Virus record (IMG/VR): IMGVR_UViG_2778261569_000018
Strand: one strand, 5' to 3'
Length of the DNA stretch: 9,572 nucleotides
Source: a virus
Taxonomy: Duplodnaviria > Heunggongvirae > Uroviricota > Caudoviricetes
Shown: one piece after another, positions 1 to 9,572 of the stretch
Layout of the letters: each line of letters opens with the position of its first letter
How positions within the stretch are numbered: the first letter of the stretch is position 1
The notes under the pieces: model-generated
The model's database searches: none
Told to the model about the DNA's origin: nothing
Seen by the model: the letters and a program-made list of their open reading frames with translations, nothing else
Program-made: the position numbers and the translations under genes

Positions 1-558
<558 letters not shown>

Positions 559-905
559 GACTGAAGATAATGTGATTGCTCCCGCCTGCTCAACACTCTG
601 TGATCGATACGAATCAGTTCGTACTTATCTACTAGGAAGTTGACTGTATCGGCTAAGGGGAATCCCGTTTTCAATATGTACCTTCATAACAGTGTCGTCA
701 ATGCGCTGCGTATCGTTAAGAGTCAGGCTGTAGTGTTTGTCCTGCAGGTATGTAACTAGGGGCTGTCAGACGGTTACAGAGGACTTCGCCACACGTTTTC
801 GGAATATAGGTAAAATTCTCATCGTCGGTTATTCTGCGAATAAAAGAAATTAATTGCGGACGGGTTTTTCGCGGTACGTCACTGTCGTATGGCAGCCAGC
901 GTATC
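559..905 (-). pseudogene. cbtA: CbtA/YkfI/YpjF-family toxin remnant, frameshifted and 3'-truncated by the IS insertion at 558
   Basis: Minus-strand translation of about 628-765 gives QPLVTYLQDKHYSLTLNDTQRIDDTVMKVHIENGIPL, then stop. A different frame from about 653 to 559 gives ADTVNFLVDKYELIRIDHRVLSRREQSHYLQ and runs straight into the IS end. This matches the central region of CbtA/YkfI toxins as recalled. The N-terminal region is not recognisable in any frame and there is no intact ORF of 60 aa or more. Confidence 0.55.
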
Positions 906-910
906 TTGGT

Positions 911-1319
911 TTATGCCCTGCTCCGTATTGTTATGTCGGTCGGTATGGCATAATGCAGTCCTAGCTTTTTCATCGCTGGCAAATGTACCAGTGCGAACCG
1001 AAGGGGGGATTCACCGATCATCCTTTTCGCATACAGCGTGACGGTCTGCTGATGACGGGGATTCAGTTCACCGCTGGTGAACATGAGTTCCAGTTGTTTC
1101 ATCAGCAGTGGAAAGGCTTGGTCCAGATGGTATGCATCCGCATCGCTGAACCGGCCTCTGATACCGGCGCGGTCTGCAAGGTAATGCAACTGATTGCCCT
1201 CCTGCACCAGACGGGCGCCAAAACGGGGTGTCACTGTCACGAACGGTGCAGGGCAGCCCCCACCAGGGGCGGTCGTGATTGTCGTCGGGATAATTTGTTT
1301 CATGGAGCGTGTCTGACAC
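911..1319 (-). pseudogene. cbeA: CbeA (YeeU)-like antitoxin with an internal frameshift
   Basis: N-terminus MSDTLHETNYPDDNHDRPWWGLPCTV is in one frame (GTG start at 1317-1319). The rest, TPRFGARLVQEGNQLHYLADRAGIRGRFSDADAYHLDQAFPLLMKQLELMFTSGELNPRHQQTVTLYAK..., is in a second frame. The shift maps to 1229-1244, where there is an apparent 10-nt insertion containing a GTGACA GTGACA tandem duplication. The open frame also runs past the expected C-terminus to 911. Confidence 0.7.
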
Positions 1320-1398
1320 GATAAAATCCTCACAGAAAATCGGTTAAGAACGGTCAGGTAATGTCGATAATTCTGCTCATCAGAATGCCCTTACTGAC

Positions 1399-1620
1399 TC
1401 AGTTCAGAGTGACGCTCATCAGCCGGACATACGGGCCAAAACTGTCCTTACGGCGTTCTGCAAACACGGCCAGCACACCGGGAATATTCTGCACTTCACG
1501 ACCGGTATACGCCTTAGCACTGCCGTGCCAGCGGTATTTGCCGGTACAGAACGGAAAAAGACGGGATGCAGGATGCTGTTGGTGAATACGCATGGCTTCA
1601 CCACGGGTGATGATTTTCAT
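1399..1620 (-). CDS. yeeT: YeeT/YkfH/YpjJ-family protein (DUF987)
   Basis: 73-aa ORF MKIITRGEAMRIHQQHP...VRLMSVTLN with ATG start, near-identical to my recollection of E. coli YeeT. Sits in the conserved position between the RadC-like gene and the antitoxin. Confidence 0.85.
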   Translation of the reverse strand: MKIITRGEAMRIHQQHPASRLFPFCTGKYRWHGSAKAYTGREVQNIPGVLAVFAERRKDSFGPYVRLMSVTLN

Positions 1621-1688
1621 GGTGTGATACCTCTGAAGACAGAAGATAAAAGTGAAAACAGGTGTGATGTGGTGGTGACGGTGACGGG

Positions 1689-2165
1689 TTAAAGCAGACC
1701 ATGTTCGGCAAAGGAGAAAACCTGGTTGCCACCAACTATCAGATGGTCCGGCACCCGGATATCCACCAGGCCCAGTGCCTGTACCAGACGTTCCGTGATA
1801 AGGCGGTCTGCCTTGCTGGGTGTGACTTCACCGGACGGGTGATTGTGTGCCAGCACCACGGCTGCGGCATTGTGGTACAGGGCGCGTTTAATCACTTCCC
1901 GGGGATGGACTTCCGTGCGGTTGATGGTGCCGGTGAAGAGGGTTTCACCGGCAATCAGCTGATTCTGGTTGTTCAGATACAGCACCCGGAATTCTTCACG
2001 CTCCAGTCCCGCCATGTTCAGAATCAGCCATTCCCGTGCCGTACGGGTGGAGGTGAAGGCCACGCCGGGTTCATGAAGATGGCGGTCCAGGGTTTTCAGG
2101 GCCCGCAGAATGAGGCTGCGCTCTCTGGTTGTCATTTCTCCGGGCAGAAAGGAAAGCTGCTGCAT
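1689..2165 (-). CDS. yeeS: RadC-like JAB-domain protein (YeeS/YkfG/YfjY family)
   Basis: 158-aa ORF with the JAB/MPN metal-binding motif HNHPSG and the conserved RadC-like C-terminus. ATG start at 2163-2165 preceded by AAGGGGG. Confidence 0.88.
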   Translation of the reverse strand: MQQLSFLPGEMTTRERSLILRALKTLDRHLHEPGVAFTSTRTAREWLILNMAGLEREEFRVLYLNNQNQLIAGETLFTGTINRTEVHPREVIKRALYHNAAAVVLAHNHPSGEVTPSKADRLITERLVQALGLVDIRVPDHLIVGGNQVFSFAEHGLL

Positions 2166-2180
2166 TGTTCCGGCCCCCTT

Positions 2181-2666
2181 TCAGTCGATGATGCGCATAA
2201 TGGCGTTGCATTCCGGATGCTGCAGGGCGTAATCCCGCAGCCGGTAATAATGGACCGTCATGGCATAACACTCCGTACGACAGGCATGATGGCTGTACGT
2301 CATCAGACAGGCGGCAATACCGGCGGCTTCCGGGCTCATTTCAGCGCGGTTACCGTTCATGGCATTGAACAGTACCCATGTTTCTCCATCATCTTCATCC
2401 GGTTCTGGAGCCATAAATGCCCCGCCGTTGTTCAGGGTGTACAGATTCCAGATACCACCACAGTAGTCTTCGCAAAGACGGTCCATCCAGCCGAAGATAC
2501 GGGGCTCCAGGGTCACCCACTGTGAAATGAGGCCAAAATGTTGCGGCCAGAAGCTGATGCGCTGTTCATCAGGGACGAGAGTAGCAACCAGCTGAGGTGG
2601 GTTATTCCCTGATGCAGCGGTTACGGAAACAGAAGGTGTGGTGGAATTATGCGTAACGGTTGTCAT
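2181..2666 (-). CDS. Antirestriction protein, KlcA/ArdB-like (YfjX/YafX family)
   Basis: 161-aa ORF; the region WNLYTLNNGGAFMAPEPDEDDGETWVLFN...MTYSHHA matches the island-borne antirestriction family as recalled. Conserved position directly upstream of the RadC-like gene. Confidence 0.8.
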   Translation of the reverse strand: MTTVTHNSTTPSVSVTAASGNNPPQLVATLVPDEQRISFWPQHFGLISQWVTLEPRIFGWMDRLCEDYCGGIWNLYTLNNGGAFMAPEPDEDDGETWVLFNAMNGNRAEMSPEAAGIAACLMTYSHHACRTECYAMTVHYYRLRDYALQHPECNAIMRIID

Positions 2667-2757
2667 GAGATTATTCCTTATAAAAAGTAAATGAATGGAA
2701 GAATGCCCGGGGGAAGGGACAGCCGTGAGTCAGGACTGCGCTTTCAGGGAAAAGGCA

Positions 2758-3576
2758 TCAGCGCATGCTCTCCAGCAGCGTTTCTGCCATCACCCACAAT
2801 GCCCGGTTGAGCTTAATGTCGGTATCGATGCTGTGAATGGCACGGGTGTGGATACGTTTTCCTTTTGCACTGCGACCGGAAAGCCCGCCTTTCAGCATAT
2901 TCTCCTGGATGGTCTGATAAGCACTCCACAGGTCCTTACCGTAATCCTCCCTGCGTCGTGGTGTCAGAATGTCGGCGGTGGTGACGGGCTGATGTTCGTC
3001 ACCATAACGGTAAGTCAGTGCCGCCTGTGCCAGCGCCTGGCGTGCCGGTGGCGGCAGGACCAGCGACTGCATGGCATCACGCTTCTCCTCTATCCGGTCA
3101 AACACACCCACCACCTCGTAAGCCCCTTCAATGACTCTGTCCACCACATTTCCCCGGTGCGGAACACGCACTTCCCCCAGAGACTGACCACAGACGCAGC
3201 CGTTCTGGCAGACGAATCTGAAGTAACCCGGCAGCATCTGGTAGCTGGAGGTACCGTCATGGGAGTTGAGCAGAATAATTTCAGGGACATGTTGTCCGTT
3301 TATCTCCCCGTCACGGCGCAGACGCAGCATGTGTTTGGTATACCCCCGGCGGCCCGGGTCACGTACGCGGGTCTGGCAGGCGAAGAATGGCTGAAAGCCT
3401 TCCCGCTGCAGGCTTTCCAGCACTGTGATGGTGGGGATGTACGAATACCGTTCACTGCGGGAGGTATGCCGGTCTTCCCCAAAAATGCTGGGAACATAGT
3501 GCATCAGTTCTTCATGGGTCAGTGGGCGGTCACGGCGTATCTGATTAATCCGTCCGAAGCGACTGGCTAATCGCAT
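2758..3576 (-). CDS. DUF932-domain protein (YfjQ/YafZ family)
   Basis: The ORF-track frame extends to 3636, but the family N-terminus MRLASRFGRINQIRRDRPL begins at the ATG at 3574-3576, which has AAGGAG 6 nt upstream. The upstream extension overlaps a terminator hairpin. 273 aa as annotated. Confidence 0.8.
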   Translation of the reverse strand: MRLASRFGRINQIRRDRPLTHEELMHYVPSIFGEDRHTSRSERYSYIPTITVLESLQREGFQPFFACQTRVRDPGRRGYTKHMLRLRRDGEINGQHVPEIILLNSHDGTSSYQMLPGYFRFVCQNGCVCGQSLGEVRVPHRGNVVDRVIEGAYEVVGVFDRIEEKRDAMQSLVLPPPARQALAQAALTYRYGDEHQPVTTADILTPRRREDYGKDLWSAYQTIQENMLKGGLSGRSAKGKRIHTRAIHSIDTDIKLNRALWVMAETLLESMR

Positions 3577-3600
3577 AATTAACTCCTTATCTGATAATGA

Positions 3601-3640
3601 AATAAAAGCAAAAAGGCCATGTCCCCGGAGGAACATGGCC
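3601..3640 (-). terminator. Rho-independent terminator downstream of the 312-aa secreted-protein gene
   Basis: Minus strand reads GGCCATGT-(10 nt loop)-ACATGGCC (8-bp perfect stem, 3615-3622 with 3633-3640) followed by TTTTTGCTTTTATT (3601-3614). Confidence 0.6.
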
Positions 3641-3665
3641 TGATGGAATATATTATTGCTGATGA

Positions 3666-4604
3666 TTAATGTTGCTGATTTTTCTCTTTAACTTTTGACC
3701 ATGAGGGGCGTCGGTTGCCGGAAAATTCCTTCTGCATTGACCAGTAACCAATCGGGAACTGCTTCACCAGCACCCCGTTGATACCAATATCGACGGACAG
3801 ATACTGACCGTTGTTGATGCTGCCCTTGCGGATGTACGCATCCGCACTGCAGGTGCCGGTATCATACTGCCGCCATGTTGCGGTATCGCGGGCGGCAACA
3901 TAAAAATCACCGAAAGCACAGCCCGTTGCTGACTTACGATTCAGAACGGCAACGTAATACTTAGTGTTGGCTATAATGGCGCAACTGCTGCTCTGACCGC
4001 CGCAGACCTGCCATAACGTTTTGCTGCTGTCACCCTTAAAGGTCCAGATAGTGTCTGCCGGTGCGCCGTCTGTATGTGTTACTGGCAATGCCGGAGCCTG
4101 CTGCACTGGTGTAACGTCGGGTACGTCGCGGCGTAATAGTCGTGCTTCAGCATCCCCGACATCGCCAAACATGTTTTCCTCTCCGCTGTTGTAATAAAAA
4201 CCGGCAATAACATGTTCTGAGGGGATATACAGTATTTTCAGATAATGGTCACCGCAATTACCCCGCTCACAGACAGACCCCAGCAGCCACTTCTCGTCAC
4301 CAACGACCACCGGAATTAATCCACTGTCAGGGCCGTTCATGGAGCCCTGTTTTCCCGTTAACCCGGTGAGTCCTGCTGACTTCAGCGCATCATCAAGGTC
4401 TTTCTTGAATACCGGGTCGGCATCGTAGATACTGCCCAGAAAGGGGCAGGAACCGTATCCGTTTTCATTATCACCAGCATCAGGATCACAGCGCATTGCA
4501 TCTGCTGCCGTTTTTGCGACACCGGCAGCGTAAACTCCGGTGGAAATAAAACAAAGCGAGGATATCAGTATTATCTGTTTTAATTTACGTAATACAAGAA
4601 ACAT
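3666..4604 (-). CDS. Secreted two-domain protein of unknown function; N-terminal domain carries an Ivy-like C-x4-C-G motif
   Basis: 312-aa ORF with ATG start. N-terminal signal peptide (hydrophobic core IILISSLCFISTGVYA, likely cleavage after VYA; no canonical lipobox). Cys-rich mature protein with VCERGNCGDHYLKILY motif. Terminator immediately downstream. Confidence 0.7.
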   Translation of the reverse strand: MFLVLRKLKQIILISSLCFISTGVYAAGVAKTAADAMRCDPDAGDNENGYGSCPFLGSIYDADPVFKKDLDDALKSAGLTGLTGKQGSMNGPDSGLIPVVVGDEKWLLGSVCERGNCGDHYLKILYIPSEHVIAGFYYNSGEENMFGDVGDAEARLLRRDVPDVTPVQQAPALPVTHTDGAPADTIWTFKGDSSKTLWQVCGGQSSSCAIIANTKYYVAVLNRKSATGCAFGDFYVAARDTATWRQYDTGTCSADAYIRKGSINNGQYLSVDIGINGVLVKQFPIGYWSMQKEFSGNRRPSWSKVKEKNQQH

Positions 4605-4632
4605 GATTATTTTTACTCCATCCTGTTTATAT

Positions 4633-4660
4633 AAAAGAAACGGGCTCCGTGAAGAGCCCT
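4633..4660 (-). terminator. Rho-independent terminator downstream of the 136-aa secreted-protein gene
   Basis: Minus strand reads GGGCTC-TTCACG-GAGCCC (6-bp GC stem, 4642-4647 with 4654-4659) followed by GTTTCTTTT (4633-4640). Confidence 0.5.
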
Positions 4661-4669
4661 GTAAAAAAT

Positions 4670-5080
4670 TTAAAAGTCAATGGTATTAAGACCAACATTC
4701 TTTTTGATGGAGGGATCGTAAATAACAACGGTAAGATGGTCTTTGTCTGAAGAACGGACAAACTTAGCGGTGGCCTCACCACTGCATGTTGCATGACGGT
4801 TATAATCCATCATTTTACCTTTGCTGGTAGCAAGATTGACAACGATGATATAAGGATCATAACAGGCCGAACCTCCCGGACTGCTCAGCAAGGCATATTT
4901 GCCATCATCAGAGACACCAATGAGGCTGCATATCCCGTCTTTTATATCCTCACTTCCGCACATCTGCTCACTTCCATCTTTCACATCAATCACAGTACGG
5001 GGTAATTTAACCTCTGTAGCATTAACTGATGCACTCAACAACAAACCTGAAACTATTAATGACAATATAAACGCTTTCAT
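4670..5080 (-). CDS. Small secreted protein of unknown function
   Basis: 136-aa ORF. Signal peptide MKAFILSLIVSGLLLSASVNA with predicted cleavage before TEV. Four Cys in the mature part. ATG start overlaps the primase stop (ATGA). Local sequence is visibly more AT-rich than its neighbours. Confidence 0.7.
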   Translation of the reverse strand: MKAFILSLIVSGLLLSASVNATEVKLPRTVIDVKDGSEQMCGSEDIKDGICSLIGVSDDGKYALLSSPGGSACYDPYIIVVNLATSKGKMMDYNRHATCSGEATAKFVRSSDKDHLTVVIYDPSIKKNVGLNTIDF

Positions 5081-5895
5081 ATACTCATCCTGTTTATCAT
5101 TACGGGGGATATATTCCTTTTATTCTGGGCGACATATAACAGGTTCCCGGCATCAATCGCCGCCACTGTCAGCGCCTCTGGACGAATTAAATGGGCAGAT
5201 AATGCCGTTGCCAGCCCTTCTGCGATTAAGATGCTCTGTGTTGTTTCTGGCGCGTTTATGGCGTGATATGCCCCCCGCTTTGCTGAACCTGTCAGGAGTC
5301 TTTTTTCACCATGTGATGTAATAGTCTGTGCTGCTGTGACTGCGCCGGATTTATCCACCAGCGCCAGCAACAGAGATCCATCGGGCAACACGGGGAATGT
5401 AAAATCACCTACCCCTTTCGCAACCAGATAATCAGATTTGCCGTTTACAGCCTTTCTGCGCATGTCATCAAACTGACGGGAAAACGTATCCCGTCTTTGT
5501 TGTTCGTCCTTCTCTGCCCTTTTCAGGCGCTCCTGTTCGCGTCGCTGGCGCTCGGTTTCCAGTTGTTCCCGTTTCTGGCTGGTGGCTTCTGGTGTTTCCG
5601 TTGTCCGGTAATCAATACCCAGAACATCAGCGGCAAGAAGCGCCGCCTCTGTTGTGTCGCAGTTATTTACGCGTTTAATTAAATCCAGCCCATCACCAGC
5701 GCCGCACTGATTACAGATGAAGCTACCGCGCCCGTTGTCATCGAACCGGAATCGATCTTTGCCCCCACATGCAGGGCAGGGAGCATGACGGCGCGGAGAG
5801 TCAGGGACATTTATGTTCAGGCAGCCCAGCACATGAGGCCAGTTGTTTTCAGACGCACTGATAACCTGACGGATAAGATCAATGTTTCGCATCAC
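5077..5895 (-). CDS. Primase-like protein: N-terminal zinc ribbon (primase-helicase type), coiled-coil linker, C-terminal Toprim-like region
   Basis: 272-aa ORF. CPACGGKDRFRFDDNGRGSFICNQCGAGDG is a four-Cys zinc ribbon of the kind found at the N-terminus of phage and plasmid primases. Charged linker QKREQLETERQRREQERLKRAEKDEQQRRD. C-terminal ILIAEGLATALS and AIDAG resemble Toprim acidic motifs. Confidence 0.75.
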   Translation of the reverse strand: MMRNIDLIRQVISASENNWPHVLGCLNINVPDSPRRHAPCPACGGKDRFRFDDNGRGSFICNQCGAGDGLDLIKRVNNCDTTEAALLAADVLGIDYRTTETPEATSQKREQLETERQRREQERLKRAEKDEQQRRDTFSRQFDDMRRKAVNGKSDYLVAKGVGDFTFPVLPDGSLLLALVDKSGAVTAAQTITSHGEKRLLTGSAKRGAYHAINAPETTQSILIAEGLATALSAHLIRPEALTVAAIDAGNLLYVAQNKRNISPVMINRMSI

Positions 5896-6594: not shown

Positions 6595-7197
6595 TCAGTG
6601 CGTCACTGGTTCCGCTGGCATGCCGTTTTCATTCAGTTCAGCTATAAAGCTGTTGTGAAGTTCAGCAAGCGTTTCACGACCAAATGGAGTCAGTGCTCCT
6701 TGTTCCACATCCATCATGGCTCTGTAGAAAATGATGGCGCGTTCTGTGCCAGACTCGATGCCAAAACGTTCTATCATCGCTCCCTCAATGTTGTTTGCCA
6801 TAGCGAGGCGCTCTGCTACTGGATACAGCGGCATGGCGACGATGCCGTTGGAATAAACAGCCACTTCGGAAGGATTGCCAGTATCATCAATGATGCTGAC
6901 AGTGCCGTTTTCCTCTCTCATTTCCAGCATGAATACTGTTGCGATCAGCCATCTCCACATAATGACGTTATGCTGTGATGTGTAATCGAAATATCCCTGG
7001 TTGCCGCCATCGGCAATAGCGAGATGTATTGACATACCTTCATCTGGTTTATCGTCATAATCCCCGGCATCCAGACGATTTACGGCATCAATATATGAGA
7101 CGGCCTCAACGCGTTCTGTCATGCCATCGTTGCTGCGGTACATGATGTTTACGCCGTCAGGCGTTGCTTCTGTATGGAAAGTTAAGAAATTATTCAT
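6595..7197 (-). CDS. Hypothetical protein, about 200 aa
   Basis: The ORF-track frame extends to 7302, but the ATG at 7195-7197 (MNNFLTFHTEATPDG...) has GAGG 6 nt upstream and forms the same 8-nt ATGAATAA overlap with the upstream stop seen elsewhere in the operon. Confidence 0.55.
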   Translation of the reverse strand: MNNFLTFHTEATPDGVNIMYRSNDGMTERVEAVSYIDAVNRLDAGDYDDKPDEGMSIHLAIADGGNQGYFDYTSQHNVIMWRWLIATVFMLEMREENGTVSIIDDTGNPSEVAVYSNGIVAMPLYPVAERLAMANNIEGAMIERFGIESGTERAIIFYRAMMDVEQGALTPFGRETLAELHNSFIAELNENGMPAEPVTH

Positions 7198-7411
7198 GTT
7201 TCGCCTCGCCTGAATGATTCTGTAACTCATATTTGCCCAACAATTCGTCCGCTTCCTGAATAGCTTCTGGTACGCCATTGAGCAGTGACATAACCGCGCC
7301 AATCATTAACTTGTCTCTGTTGCTGGGGCTGGCCCCTTCAAGCCAGAACCCTAAAACAGTCTGAACCTGTTCGATGCGACATTGCGCTTCAATGAGCTGG
7401 ATGTTGGTCAT
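7190..7411 (-). CDS. Hypothetical small protein, 73 aa
   Basis: ATG start at 7409-7411 overlapping the upstream stop (ATGA). Stop TAA at 7190-7192 overlaps the downstream start. Confidence 0.55.
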   Translation of the reverse strand: MTNIQLIEAQCRIEQVQTVLGFWLEGASPSNRDKLMIGAVMSLLNGVPEAIQEADELLGKYELQNHSGEAKHE

Positions 7412-8922: not shown

Positions 8923-9014
8923 TTGTTAACCTCCGCGAACTCCTTCATGAAGCGCGCCAGCGGTTGTACGCATGGCGATTGATACCCGTCGCGATAAAAC
9001 GTCACTCGGTTGTG

Positions 9015-9572
<558 letters not shown>

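Follow-up and report, generated by a model that had tools for sequence, protein, structure and literature searches.

A two-domain secreted protein with a predicted Ivy-fold domain and a rewritten Ivy-type loop on CP4-type islands of Enterobacterales

The 9,572-nucleotide (nt) stretch analyzed here (the window; IMG/VR record IMGVR_UViG_2778261569_000018, assigned to the Caudoviricetes) carries on its minus strand a gene for a 312-amino-acid (aa) secreted protein, the N-terminal domain of which contains a C-x4-C-G motif. The first-pass annotation of the window, made from the sequence without database searches, had likened this motif to the inhibitory loop of Ivy, the periplasmic inhibitor of vertebrate lysozyme. 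We followed up this comparison with profile searches, a predicted structure, and genome comparisons. The open reading frame (ORF) list and its translation divide the gene as follows, the domain limits being those supported by the searches described below; AF2 denotes AlphaFold2, and pLDDT denotes the predicted local distance difference test score.
3666..4604, minus strand: gene for the 312-aa secreted two-domain protein (ORF list and translation; stop codon at 3666–3668)
4527..4604, minus strand: signal peptide, aa 1–26 (MFLVLRKLKQIILISSLCFISTGVYA, followed by A), read from the sequence
4119..4526, minus strand: Ivy-like N-terminal domain (N-domain), aa 27–162 (Pfam, hhalign, AF2, and Foldseek)
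4251..4271, minus strand: loop C112-E-R-G-N-C117-G118 (CERGNCG, aa 112–118), counterpart of the Ivy inhibitory loop CKPHDC-G
4062..4118, minus strand: Pro/Ala/Gln-rich interdomain linker, aa 163–181 (pLDDT <50 at aa 163–178)
3669..4061, minus strand: C-terminal β-rich domain (C-domain), aa 182–312, with invariant C201, C208, C229, and C252 and a basic tail

Inspected by eye, the signal peptide has a K/R-rich basic n-region, a hydrophobic core, and a VYA-A cleavage site, as is typical of a Sec signal, and no lipobox was seen in it. An N-terminal signal peptide is also kept in the homologues, and the protein is thus predicted to be exported to the periplasm, as members of the Ivy family are. Cys residues occur at positions 18, 39, 53, 112, 117, 201, 208, 229, and 252 of the translation, and eight of them remain in the mature product after removal of the signal. 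Purifying selection acts on both domains (omega 0.06–0.29), which marks the gene as functional. A protein identical to the 312-aa product (P0001) was found on at least 1000 contigs under the names 'hypothetical' and 'Prophage protein', and the annotation of E. coli O111 11128 lists the gene product as hypothetical.

The segment aa 111–126 of the translation is VCERGNCGDHYLKILY. The motif CERGNCG was present where the first-pass annotation had placed it, except that the start, given as 4250, was one base off and the true span is 4251–4271; the numbering of C112 and C117 agreed with the translation. A longer pattern, C-x4-C-G-x3-[IL]-x-[IV]-[LM]-[YW], had been given there as common to this protein and Ivy. 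E. coli K-12 Ivy, fetched from NC_000913.3, contains YQVMSACKPHDCGSQRIAVMWSEK and reads CKPHDCGSQRIAVMW over the pattern; the pattern is indeed common to both proteins. Because C-x4-C-G was contained in 2.4% of 200,000 shuffles of the 312-aa protein, the short motif alone is weak evidence for kinship with Ivy; it also turned up four times when the window was translated in all six frames, and the residue after the second Cys varies in canonical Ivy proteins, among which G, A, T, and P are all seen. None of the 200,000 shuffles contained the long pattern, which, however, was defined post hoc. The motif is more than a chance resemblance because the profile and structure evidence agree.

In a Pfam scan at E ≤ 1, the sole match of the 312-aa protein was PF08816 (Ivy), in which aa 98–140 aligned to profile positions 36–78 (E 0.042, 14.4 bits). 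Among 25 aligned full-length homologues, 23 matched PF08816 at E ≤ 1 and nine at E ≤ 1e-4, the best having an E-value of 4.2e-10. We collected 70 homologue clusters, all from Enterobacterales, six of which NCBI names as Ivy-family lysozyme inhibitors; the label carried by some homologues is 'Ivy family c-type lysozyme inhibitor'. When the N-domain profile was compared with 15 canonical Ivy sequences by hhalign, 87 columns were aligned (family columns 35–125) with the loop in register, at a probability of 95% and an E-value of 3.5e-8. The best PDB match of the family profile was E. coli Ivy (1gpq/1xs0), again with the two loop Cys residues in register, and in both the hidden Markov model and the HH alignments C112 and C117, which are conserved in the family, fell exactly on C57 and C62 of Ivy. 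The same profile scan and the NCBIfam scan gave nothing further for the 312-aa protein, NCBIfam showing no match, and in PHROGs there was a weak match to phrog_5248 (E 0.0027). A search for homologues with the N-domain alignment did not reach canonical Ivy and returned only family fragments and two distant single-domain relatives.

The AF2 model of the N-domain had a pLDDT of about 85–95 over aa 30–160. The eight top Foldseek matches in the PDB were all Ivy structures (1gpq, 4ps6, 1uuz, and 1xs0; probability 1.0), with 107–125 columns aligned to chains of 127–130 residues and template modeling (TM) scores of 0.48–0.67 normalized to Ivy. In the model, predicted strands 104–112 and 120–127 flank the C112–C117 loop, so that the two Cys residues lie adjacent in a loop in register with that of Ivy, as the first-pass annotation had supposed. 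MliC/PliC and LprI (DUF1311), which it had named for comparison and which are likewise proteins that inhibit lysozyme in the envelope of Gram-negative bacteria (PMC2267010), gave no Pfam match at E ≤ 1, and the model resembled Ivy instead. Ahead of the loop, the N-domain has an N-terminal extension with a conserved Cys pair, C39 and C53 (C-x(n)-CP), which is not present in canonical Ivy. Homology to Ivy is well supported because the above-threshold homologues, the profile–profile comparison, and the predicted structure concur, and we consider it very probable, from these profiles and the model, that the N-domain is an Ivy-fold homologue.

In the 15 aligned canonical Ivy sequences, the C, K, P, H, and closing C of CKPHDC were invariant (15/15), and D was replaced by N in one. 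CKPHDC with its active-site His was not found in the 312-aa protein, in which the loop is CERGNC; the family consensus is C-E-x-[GNSH]-[NSD]-C-G-x-H, with no His within the Cys pair. Nor is the loop of the CExxDxC (IvyP2) type, since it reads C-E-x-x-N-C, with four residues between the Cys residues and not five. The segment aa 112–120 is nevertheless the most conserved of the N-domain (0.80 versus 0.57–0.64), and both loop Cys residues are retained despite further alteration of the loop in P0067 (C-x3-C) and P0211 (CQQHMC). By sequence, the protein is placed within the Ivy fold or superfamily and not among the Ivy orthologues, because the defining CKPHDC loop is lacking. This loop is essential for inhibition of hen egg-white lysozyme (HEWL) and is strictly conserved in 30 Ivy family members, whereas in five others the loop is CExxDxC (PMC4262234). 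In vitro, IvyP2, a P. aeruginosa paralogue, showed no inhibition of lysozyme (PMC5526577), and MltB, a lytic transglycosylase, is inhibited by both Ivyp1 and Ivyp2 (Clarke 2010, as cited in PMC10139938). Ivy-type loops thus differ among themselves in function, and inhibition of C-type lysozyme is not implied for the 312-aa protein because its loop is without the His of CKPHDC.

The C-domain is a separate module behind the disordered Pro/Ala-rich linker, the segment of lowest conservation in the protein (0.44). It matched no Pfam family and no solved fold, and an exhaustive search of 1.84 billion representatives returned only 18 relatives. Its only likeness was to uncharacterized proteins of ~130 aa from Erwinia jumbo phages (E 3e-5, TM about 0.5). 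The C-domain probably holds two disulfides, and it was 72–81% identical between proteins in which the N-domain was only 40–51% identical. Some of its relatives are stand-alone secreted proteins, and others are fused to a different C-terminal partner: P0071, P0075, P0076, and P0078–P0081 consist of a signal peptide, the four-Cys C-domain, and an unrelated ~120-aa C-terminal domain that ends in Cys and has no Pfam match. Judging from these sequences, the C-domain is a mobile module that joins different partners. Several apparent relationships were rejected. The neighboring 136-aa protein looked by eye like a C-domain paralogue, but the hhalign probability was 0.2% and the BLASTP E-value 46; the C-terminal part of P0071 was not accepted as K-12 YfjT (BLASTP E about 1); and a DUF7908 match, seen in four homologues, extends across the Pro/Ala-rich linker and probably reflects its composition. 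YfjS, YfjT, YpjK, and YfjW of K-12 showed no similarity to any part of the cassette.

The genes and signals around the two-domain gene are as follows.
3614..3641, minus strand: strong terminator-like hairpin with a 12-bp stem and a T tract, 25 nt past the stop codon of the 312-aa gene
4606..4659, minus strand: upstream intergenic signals between the 136-aa and 312-aa genes, a terminator-like hairpin (4642–4659) and then a promoter-like site (4606–4635)
4670..5080, minus strand: partner gene, encoding a secreted protein of 136 aa with four Cys residues (phrog_8968; no Pfam family)
1689..3576, minus strand: downstream conserved backbone, comprising DUF932 (2758–3576), antirestriction (2181–2666), and RadC/JAB (1689–2165) genes, from Pfam and the O111 11128 RefSeq record

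The hairpins and promoter-like site are consensus matches only, and the total hairpin count in the window was not above the shuffle expectation. The upstream hairpin and promoter-like site suggest that the 312-aa gene can form its own transcription unit, and the flanking signals are consistent with a self-contained cassette. The longest DUF932 ORF call (start 3636) would overlap the hairpin at 3614–3641; the shorter RefSeq start (3576) avoids the overlap.

The thrW tRNA-Thr site of E. coli O111:H- 11128 is occupied by an island in which the gene is accompanied by an integrase remnant, IS1203 copies, CbtA/YeeU remnants, DUF987, RadC/JAB, antirestriction, and DUF932. Equivalent neighborhoods were found in Serratia, Pectobacterium, Salmonella salamae/diarizonae, Erwinia, and Klebsiella. 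The recurring genes, namely, a YfjP-type GTPase, DUF932, antirestriction, RadC, CbeA/CbtA, and DUF4942, form the backbone of the K-12 cryptic prophages CP4-57 and CP4-44, and the two-domain gene is a recurrent cargo of integrative islands of this type. A Yersinia copy stands alone beside rpoD, and the two-domain form also occurs on four large Klebsiella plasmids. The first-pass annotation had regarded an Ivy-like domain joined to an extra Cys-containing C-terminal domain on an island as unusual; this architecture and location were borne out, although it is not unique to the locus and represents a conserved family. Among 5426 complete E. coli genomes, 83 carry the two-domain gene (about 1.5%) and 5424 carry canonical ivy, so the gene adds to ivy and does not replace it.

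The C-domain was found as a stand-alone secreted protein, without an Ivy-like domain, at 14 loci of Proteus, Providencia, Morganella, and Moellerella, in the same island slot adjoining DUF932 and antirestriction genes; DUF932-antirestriction-RadC neighbors are likewise present in Proteus. At a fifteenth Morganellaceae locus (L031), only a distant DUF932 fragment was detected. These C-domain-only loci are L007 7001–8127 (Proteus mirabilis) and L018–L032. At the P. mirabilis locus (L007 7001–8127), the C-domain-only gene adjoins a gene of the IrmA family (PF18673), which is named for a secreted host-interaction protein.

In E. coli, S. diarizonae, Klebsiella sp., and two metagenome-assembled genomes (one from Enterobacteriaceae), the 136-aa gene is the immediate upstream neighbor of the two-domain gene. 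The GC content of the 136-aa gene is about 42%, as against about 50% for the genes around it. Relatives that consist of the N-domain only were found by tblastn against plasmids. On the E. coli plasmid pNJS001-2 (L033 4812–5921), a single-domain gene with the loop CKANTC occupies the same slot, upstream of DUF932-antirestriction-RadC-YeeT-CbeA. The CKANTC protein (WP_000775497.1 type) is 31% identical to the 312-aa protein over 160 aa, a span that takes in the signal peptide (E 2e-21), and directly downstream of its gene is a homologue of the 136-aa gene (32% identity, E 6e-15). The 136-aa protein is thus a conserved partner of island-borne Ivy-like genes; its gene precedes those of the two-domain type and follows those of the CKANTC type. 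The CKANTC and 136-aa pair was present in 2375 of the 5426 complete E. coli genomes (about 44%), including SpLE2 of O157 Sakai and O111 11128 (about 2.607 Mb), where the annotation of the two genes is limited to 'hypothetical protein (x2)'. The start assigned to the 227-aa CKANTC product is probably 65 codons too early, as the internal MKRLHTLMLF opens a clean signal peptide.

A preprint reported that knock-down by CRISPR interference (CRISPRi) of an Ivy-like CKANTC hypothetical protein of E. coli O121 increased T7 plaquing, and its authors proposed an inhibitor of phage lysozyme (10.1101/2024.04.20.590424). This phenotype belongs to a CKANTC-type protein and not to the two-domain 312-aa protein. 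The CKANTC relative shares with the latter the N-terminal Cys-pair extension, the island slot, and the 136-aa partner; it differs in that it lacks a C-terminal domain, has the loop K-A-N-T, has its partner downstream rather than upstream, and is far commoner.

IvyP2, the P. aeruginosa paralogue mentioned above, is chromosomal and has a single domain. Compared by its published motif (CExxDxC), IvyP2/PA5481 resembles the 312-aa protein in that both loops are noncanonical, begin with C-E, and have an Asp/Asn-type residue near the end. Members of the IvyP2-type group are described as inhibiting MltB and as lacking inhibition of lysozyme in vitro, according to the statements consulted in PMC4262234, PMC5526577, and PMC10139938. 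With E. coli Ivy (YkfE; 1GPQ, 1XS0) and P. aeruginosa Ivyp1 (PA3902; 1UUZ, 4PS6), both of PF08816, the 312-aa protein has in common periplasmic export, the fold, and a C-x4-C hairpin loop in register, after which come G and a hydrophobic strand with an aromatic residue at its end. In contrast to these proteins, to which it is only about 15% identical, it has E-R-G-N in place of the invariant K-P-H-D, an N-terminal extension (C39/C53), and a 130-aa C-terminal domain; its gene is island-borne and rare (83/5426), whereas ivy is core (5424/5426). T4 Spackle is described as a periplasmic inhibitor of the gp5 tail lysozyme that acts in superinfection exclusion (PMC7677548). It offers a functional analogy only, as a small periplasmic blocker of an incoming peptidoglycan hydrolase that is encoded by a mobile element; going by the description in PMC7677548 it is an unrelated protein, and an exclusion role of the 312-aa protein is hypothetical.

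These results suggest a model in which the 312-aa protein would be a Sec-exported periplasmic protein built of two independent modules. Module 1 (aa 27–162) would be a diverged Ivy fold in which C112 and C117, the counterparts of the Ivy residues by alignment and model, close a protruding loop. The disulfide-constrained loop, E-R-G-N followed by G-x-H, would enter the active-site cleft of a glycosidase that acts on peptidoglycan and so block the enzyme, as in the complex of Ivy with HEWL. The changed loop, the coexistence with core ivy, and the mobile-element context direct the expected target away from the classical C-type lysozyme; rather than a hen-type enzyme, it would likely be a different enzyme at work in the periplasm, either a muramidase or a lytic transglycosylase, such as a virion-associated phage enzyme, an enzyme delivered by a competitor, or an endogenous lytic transglycosylase. 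Module 2 (aa 182–312) would be the more strongly conserved β-rich domain, probably with two disulfides. Because each module stands alone in the same slot and the two are fused here, both may act in one process. We lean slightly toward the combined statement, drawn from sequence and model, that the N-domain has an Ivy fold and inhibits a peptidoglycan-cleaving enzyme by way of the loop; taken by itself and argued by analogy with Ivy, inhibition of such an enzyme through the loop appears to us evenly balanced.

Several observations weigh against this model. The 312-aa protein itself, at 14.4 bits, does not reach the PF08816 gathering cut-off of 21 bits, and the Foldseek E-values were modest (1e-3 to 1e-2) at TM scores of 0.48–0.67. 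The loop begins with an acidic Glu and lacks the active-site His of canonical Ivy, so that inhibitory function could be lost. The putative C112–C117 disulfide is deduced from export and from the retention of both Cys residues at a changed loop length. The C-domain is more conserved and more widespread than the Ivy-like domain, so the main activity may lie there. A tblastn search of 50,697 phage records gave no match to the 312-aa protein, and PADLOC-DB gave none at E ≤ 1 for either the 312-aa or the 136-aa protein. In a later study, E. coli Ivy and MliC were only weak inhibitors of lytic transglycosylases (PMC10139938). As for the T7 phenotype, 'hypo_04657' of O121 (the PHAGEPACK preprint) is probably the CKANTC relative, an assignment made from the shared loop only, and CRISPRi is polar, so the phenotype may stem from downstream island genes (10.1101/2024.04.20.590424).

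We also considered whether the protein is an additional, ordinary C-type lysozyme inhibitor, that is, a virulence or fitness factor against animal lysozyme with an Ivy-like action despite the altered loop. The Ivy fold with its loop in register, the NCBI name 'Ivy family c-type lysozyme inhibitor' on several homologues, and the carriers, which are animal-associated Enterobacterales including enterohemorrhagic E. coli O111, would all fit. The NCBI names are, however, automatic and domain-based, and canonical ivy is already present in all carriers. Furthermore, CKPHDC is invariant in 15/15 canonical sequences and is reported to be essential (PMC4262234), whereas the two-domain family has no loop His, and IvyP2, which also has a noncanonical loop, did not inhibit lysozyme in vitro (PMC5526577). 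We therefore regard this explanation as quite unlikely. A chance resemblance, or another kind of Cys motif unrelated to Ivy such as that of a 2Fe-2S ferredoxin or a Kunitz-like protein, is highly improbable. C-x4-C-G does occur in 2.4% of shuffles, the Pfam Ivy match of the 312-aa protein is below threshold, and a single-sequence phmmer search of the PDB ranked FeSII ferredoxins (CQDGNCGSC) first (E 0.13–0.34), with a Kunitz protein at E 0.37. Neither the ferredoxin nor the Kunitz matches are significant, and the above-threshold homologues, the profile–profile alignment, and the comparison of the predicted structure with the PDB all concur on Ivy. The FeSII 2Fe-2S ferredoxin was rejected as a candidate: its best E-value was 0.13, the 312-aa protein has C-x4-C only, the third and fourth Cys ligands are absent nearby, and the protein is exported.

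Another possibility is that the Ivy fold serves as a scaffold or binding module, chaperone-like or binding peptidoglycan or the envelope, and that the C-domain carries the real activity, for example, envelope modification, exclusion of incoming elements, or host interaction. The missing canonical His agrees with this, as do the higher identity of the C-domain (72–81% versus 40–51%) and its occurrence alone at 15 Morganellaceae loci, 14 of them in the same slot and the one in P. mirabilis adjoining the IrmA-family gene; RefSeq labels K-12 Ivy a 'periplasmic chaperone' besides an inhibitor. On the other hand, conservation within the N-domain is highest in the loop, as would be expected of a loop that inhibits or binds, the N-domain occurs alone (CKANTC type) in 2375/5426 E. 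coli genomes and so has a function of its own, and no fold or family match of the C-domain indicates any activity. This explanation appears unlikely, though plausible.

Returning to loop-based inhibition by the Ivy-fold domain, the targets of Ivy-type inhibitors are still debated between animal lysozyme and the cell's own lytic transglycosylases. Animal lysozyme normally cannot reach the periplasm. The locus represents a mobile, accessory branch of Ivy in which the loop is rewritten yet best conserved, which coexists with core ivy, and which is linked to anti-restriction and toxin–antitoxin cargo. The T7 phenotype of a CKANTC-type protein makes the question of the target directly testable. During genome entry, T7 employs a transglycosylase domain carried by gp16; as a target, this domain would fit the phenotype in the preprint better than the cytoplasmic T7 amidase. 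More speculatively, and on balance improbably, CP4-type islands of Enterobacterales might carry periplasmic 'anti-lysin' cassettes that confer superinfection exclusion or immunity against externally delivered peptidoglycan-cutting enzymes. Such a cassette would combine an Ivy-like module of variable loop (CERGNC, CKANTC, or CQQHMC) with the 136-aa partner and/or the four-Cys C-domain; its targets would be transglycosylases or lysozymes of phage virions (e.g., T7 gp16) or effectors of competitors, and variation of the loop would set target specificity. If so, the role of the Ivy fold on mobile elements would be to ward off phages and rivals, not animal lysozyme.

If these proteins block muramidases of phages or competitors, they would constitute an unrecognized class of envelope-level defense present in about 44% (CKANTC) and about 1.5% (two-domain) of complete E. 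coli genomes; if they are ordinary lysozyme inhibitors, they would be a modest extension of a known virulence-factor family. What is new is the combination of the rewritten loop, the additional N-terminal extension with its putative disulfide, the fusion to an orphan four-Cys domain, and the carriage on CP4-type islands. Part of this could already be seen in the automatic annotations that some homologues carry and in one preprint dealing with a relative, and no published study of the two-domain protein was found in the literature searched.

A few further observations concern individual sequences. P0064 from Erwinia persicina (L011 7001–8146; 381 aa) has a GYF_2 domain annotated ahead of the signal peptide; this is either a true cytoplasmic extension or, more likely, the result of a start called too far upstream, with the internal MERKSSS... 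as the true one. Two genes of 235 aa, the window ORF at 6595..7302 and the gene upstream of the Serratia homologue, are unrelated to each other, and a 312-aa gene in the Proteus locus is unrelated to the 312-aa protein of the window; the equal lengths are coincidental in both cases.

The window begins and ends with perfect inverted repeats of 561 nt (1–561 and 9012–9572), each coding for the same 163-aa fragment of an IS3-family (IS1203-like) transposase, and it resembles a short-read contig that ends in insertion sequence (IS) copies. No complete E. coli genome has more than 59% of the window in one place, and the O111 genomes match positions 1–5127 and then run into IS1203. Between RadC and the left IS, positions 889–1620 hold remnants of a CbtA/YeeU (CbeA) toxin–antitoxin pair and an intact DUF987 (YeeT-like) gene; the CbtA/YeeU genes are annotated as frameshifted or partial in the O111 11128 RefSeq record. 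The ORF at 5077–5895 on the minus strand encodes only the N-terminal 272 aa, a zinc ribbon and the start of Toprim, of a P4-alpha-type primase and matches positions 14–247 of an 802-position PHROG profile. The primase is cut off where the cassette of the 136-aa and 312-aa genes starts, which suggests a mosaic junction of a P4-like element and a CP4-type island.

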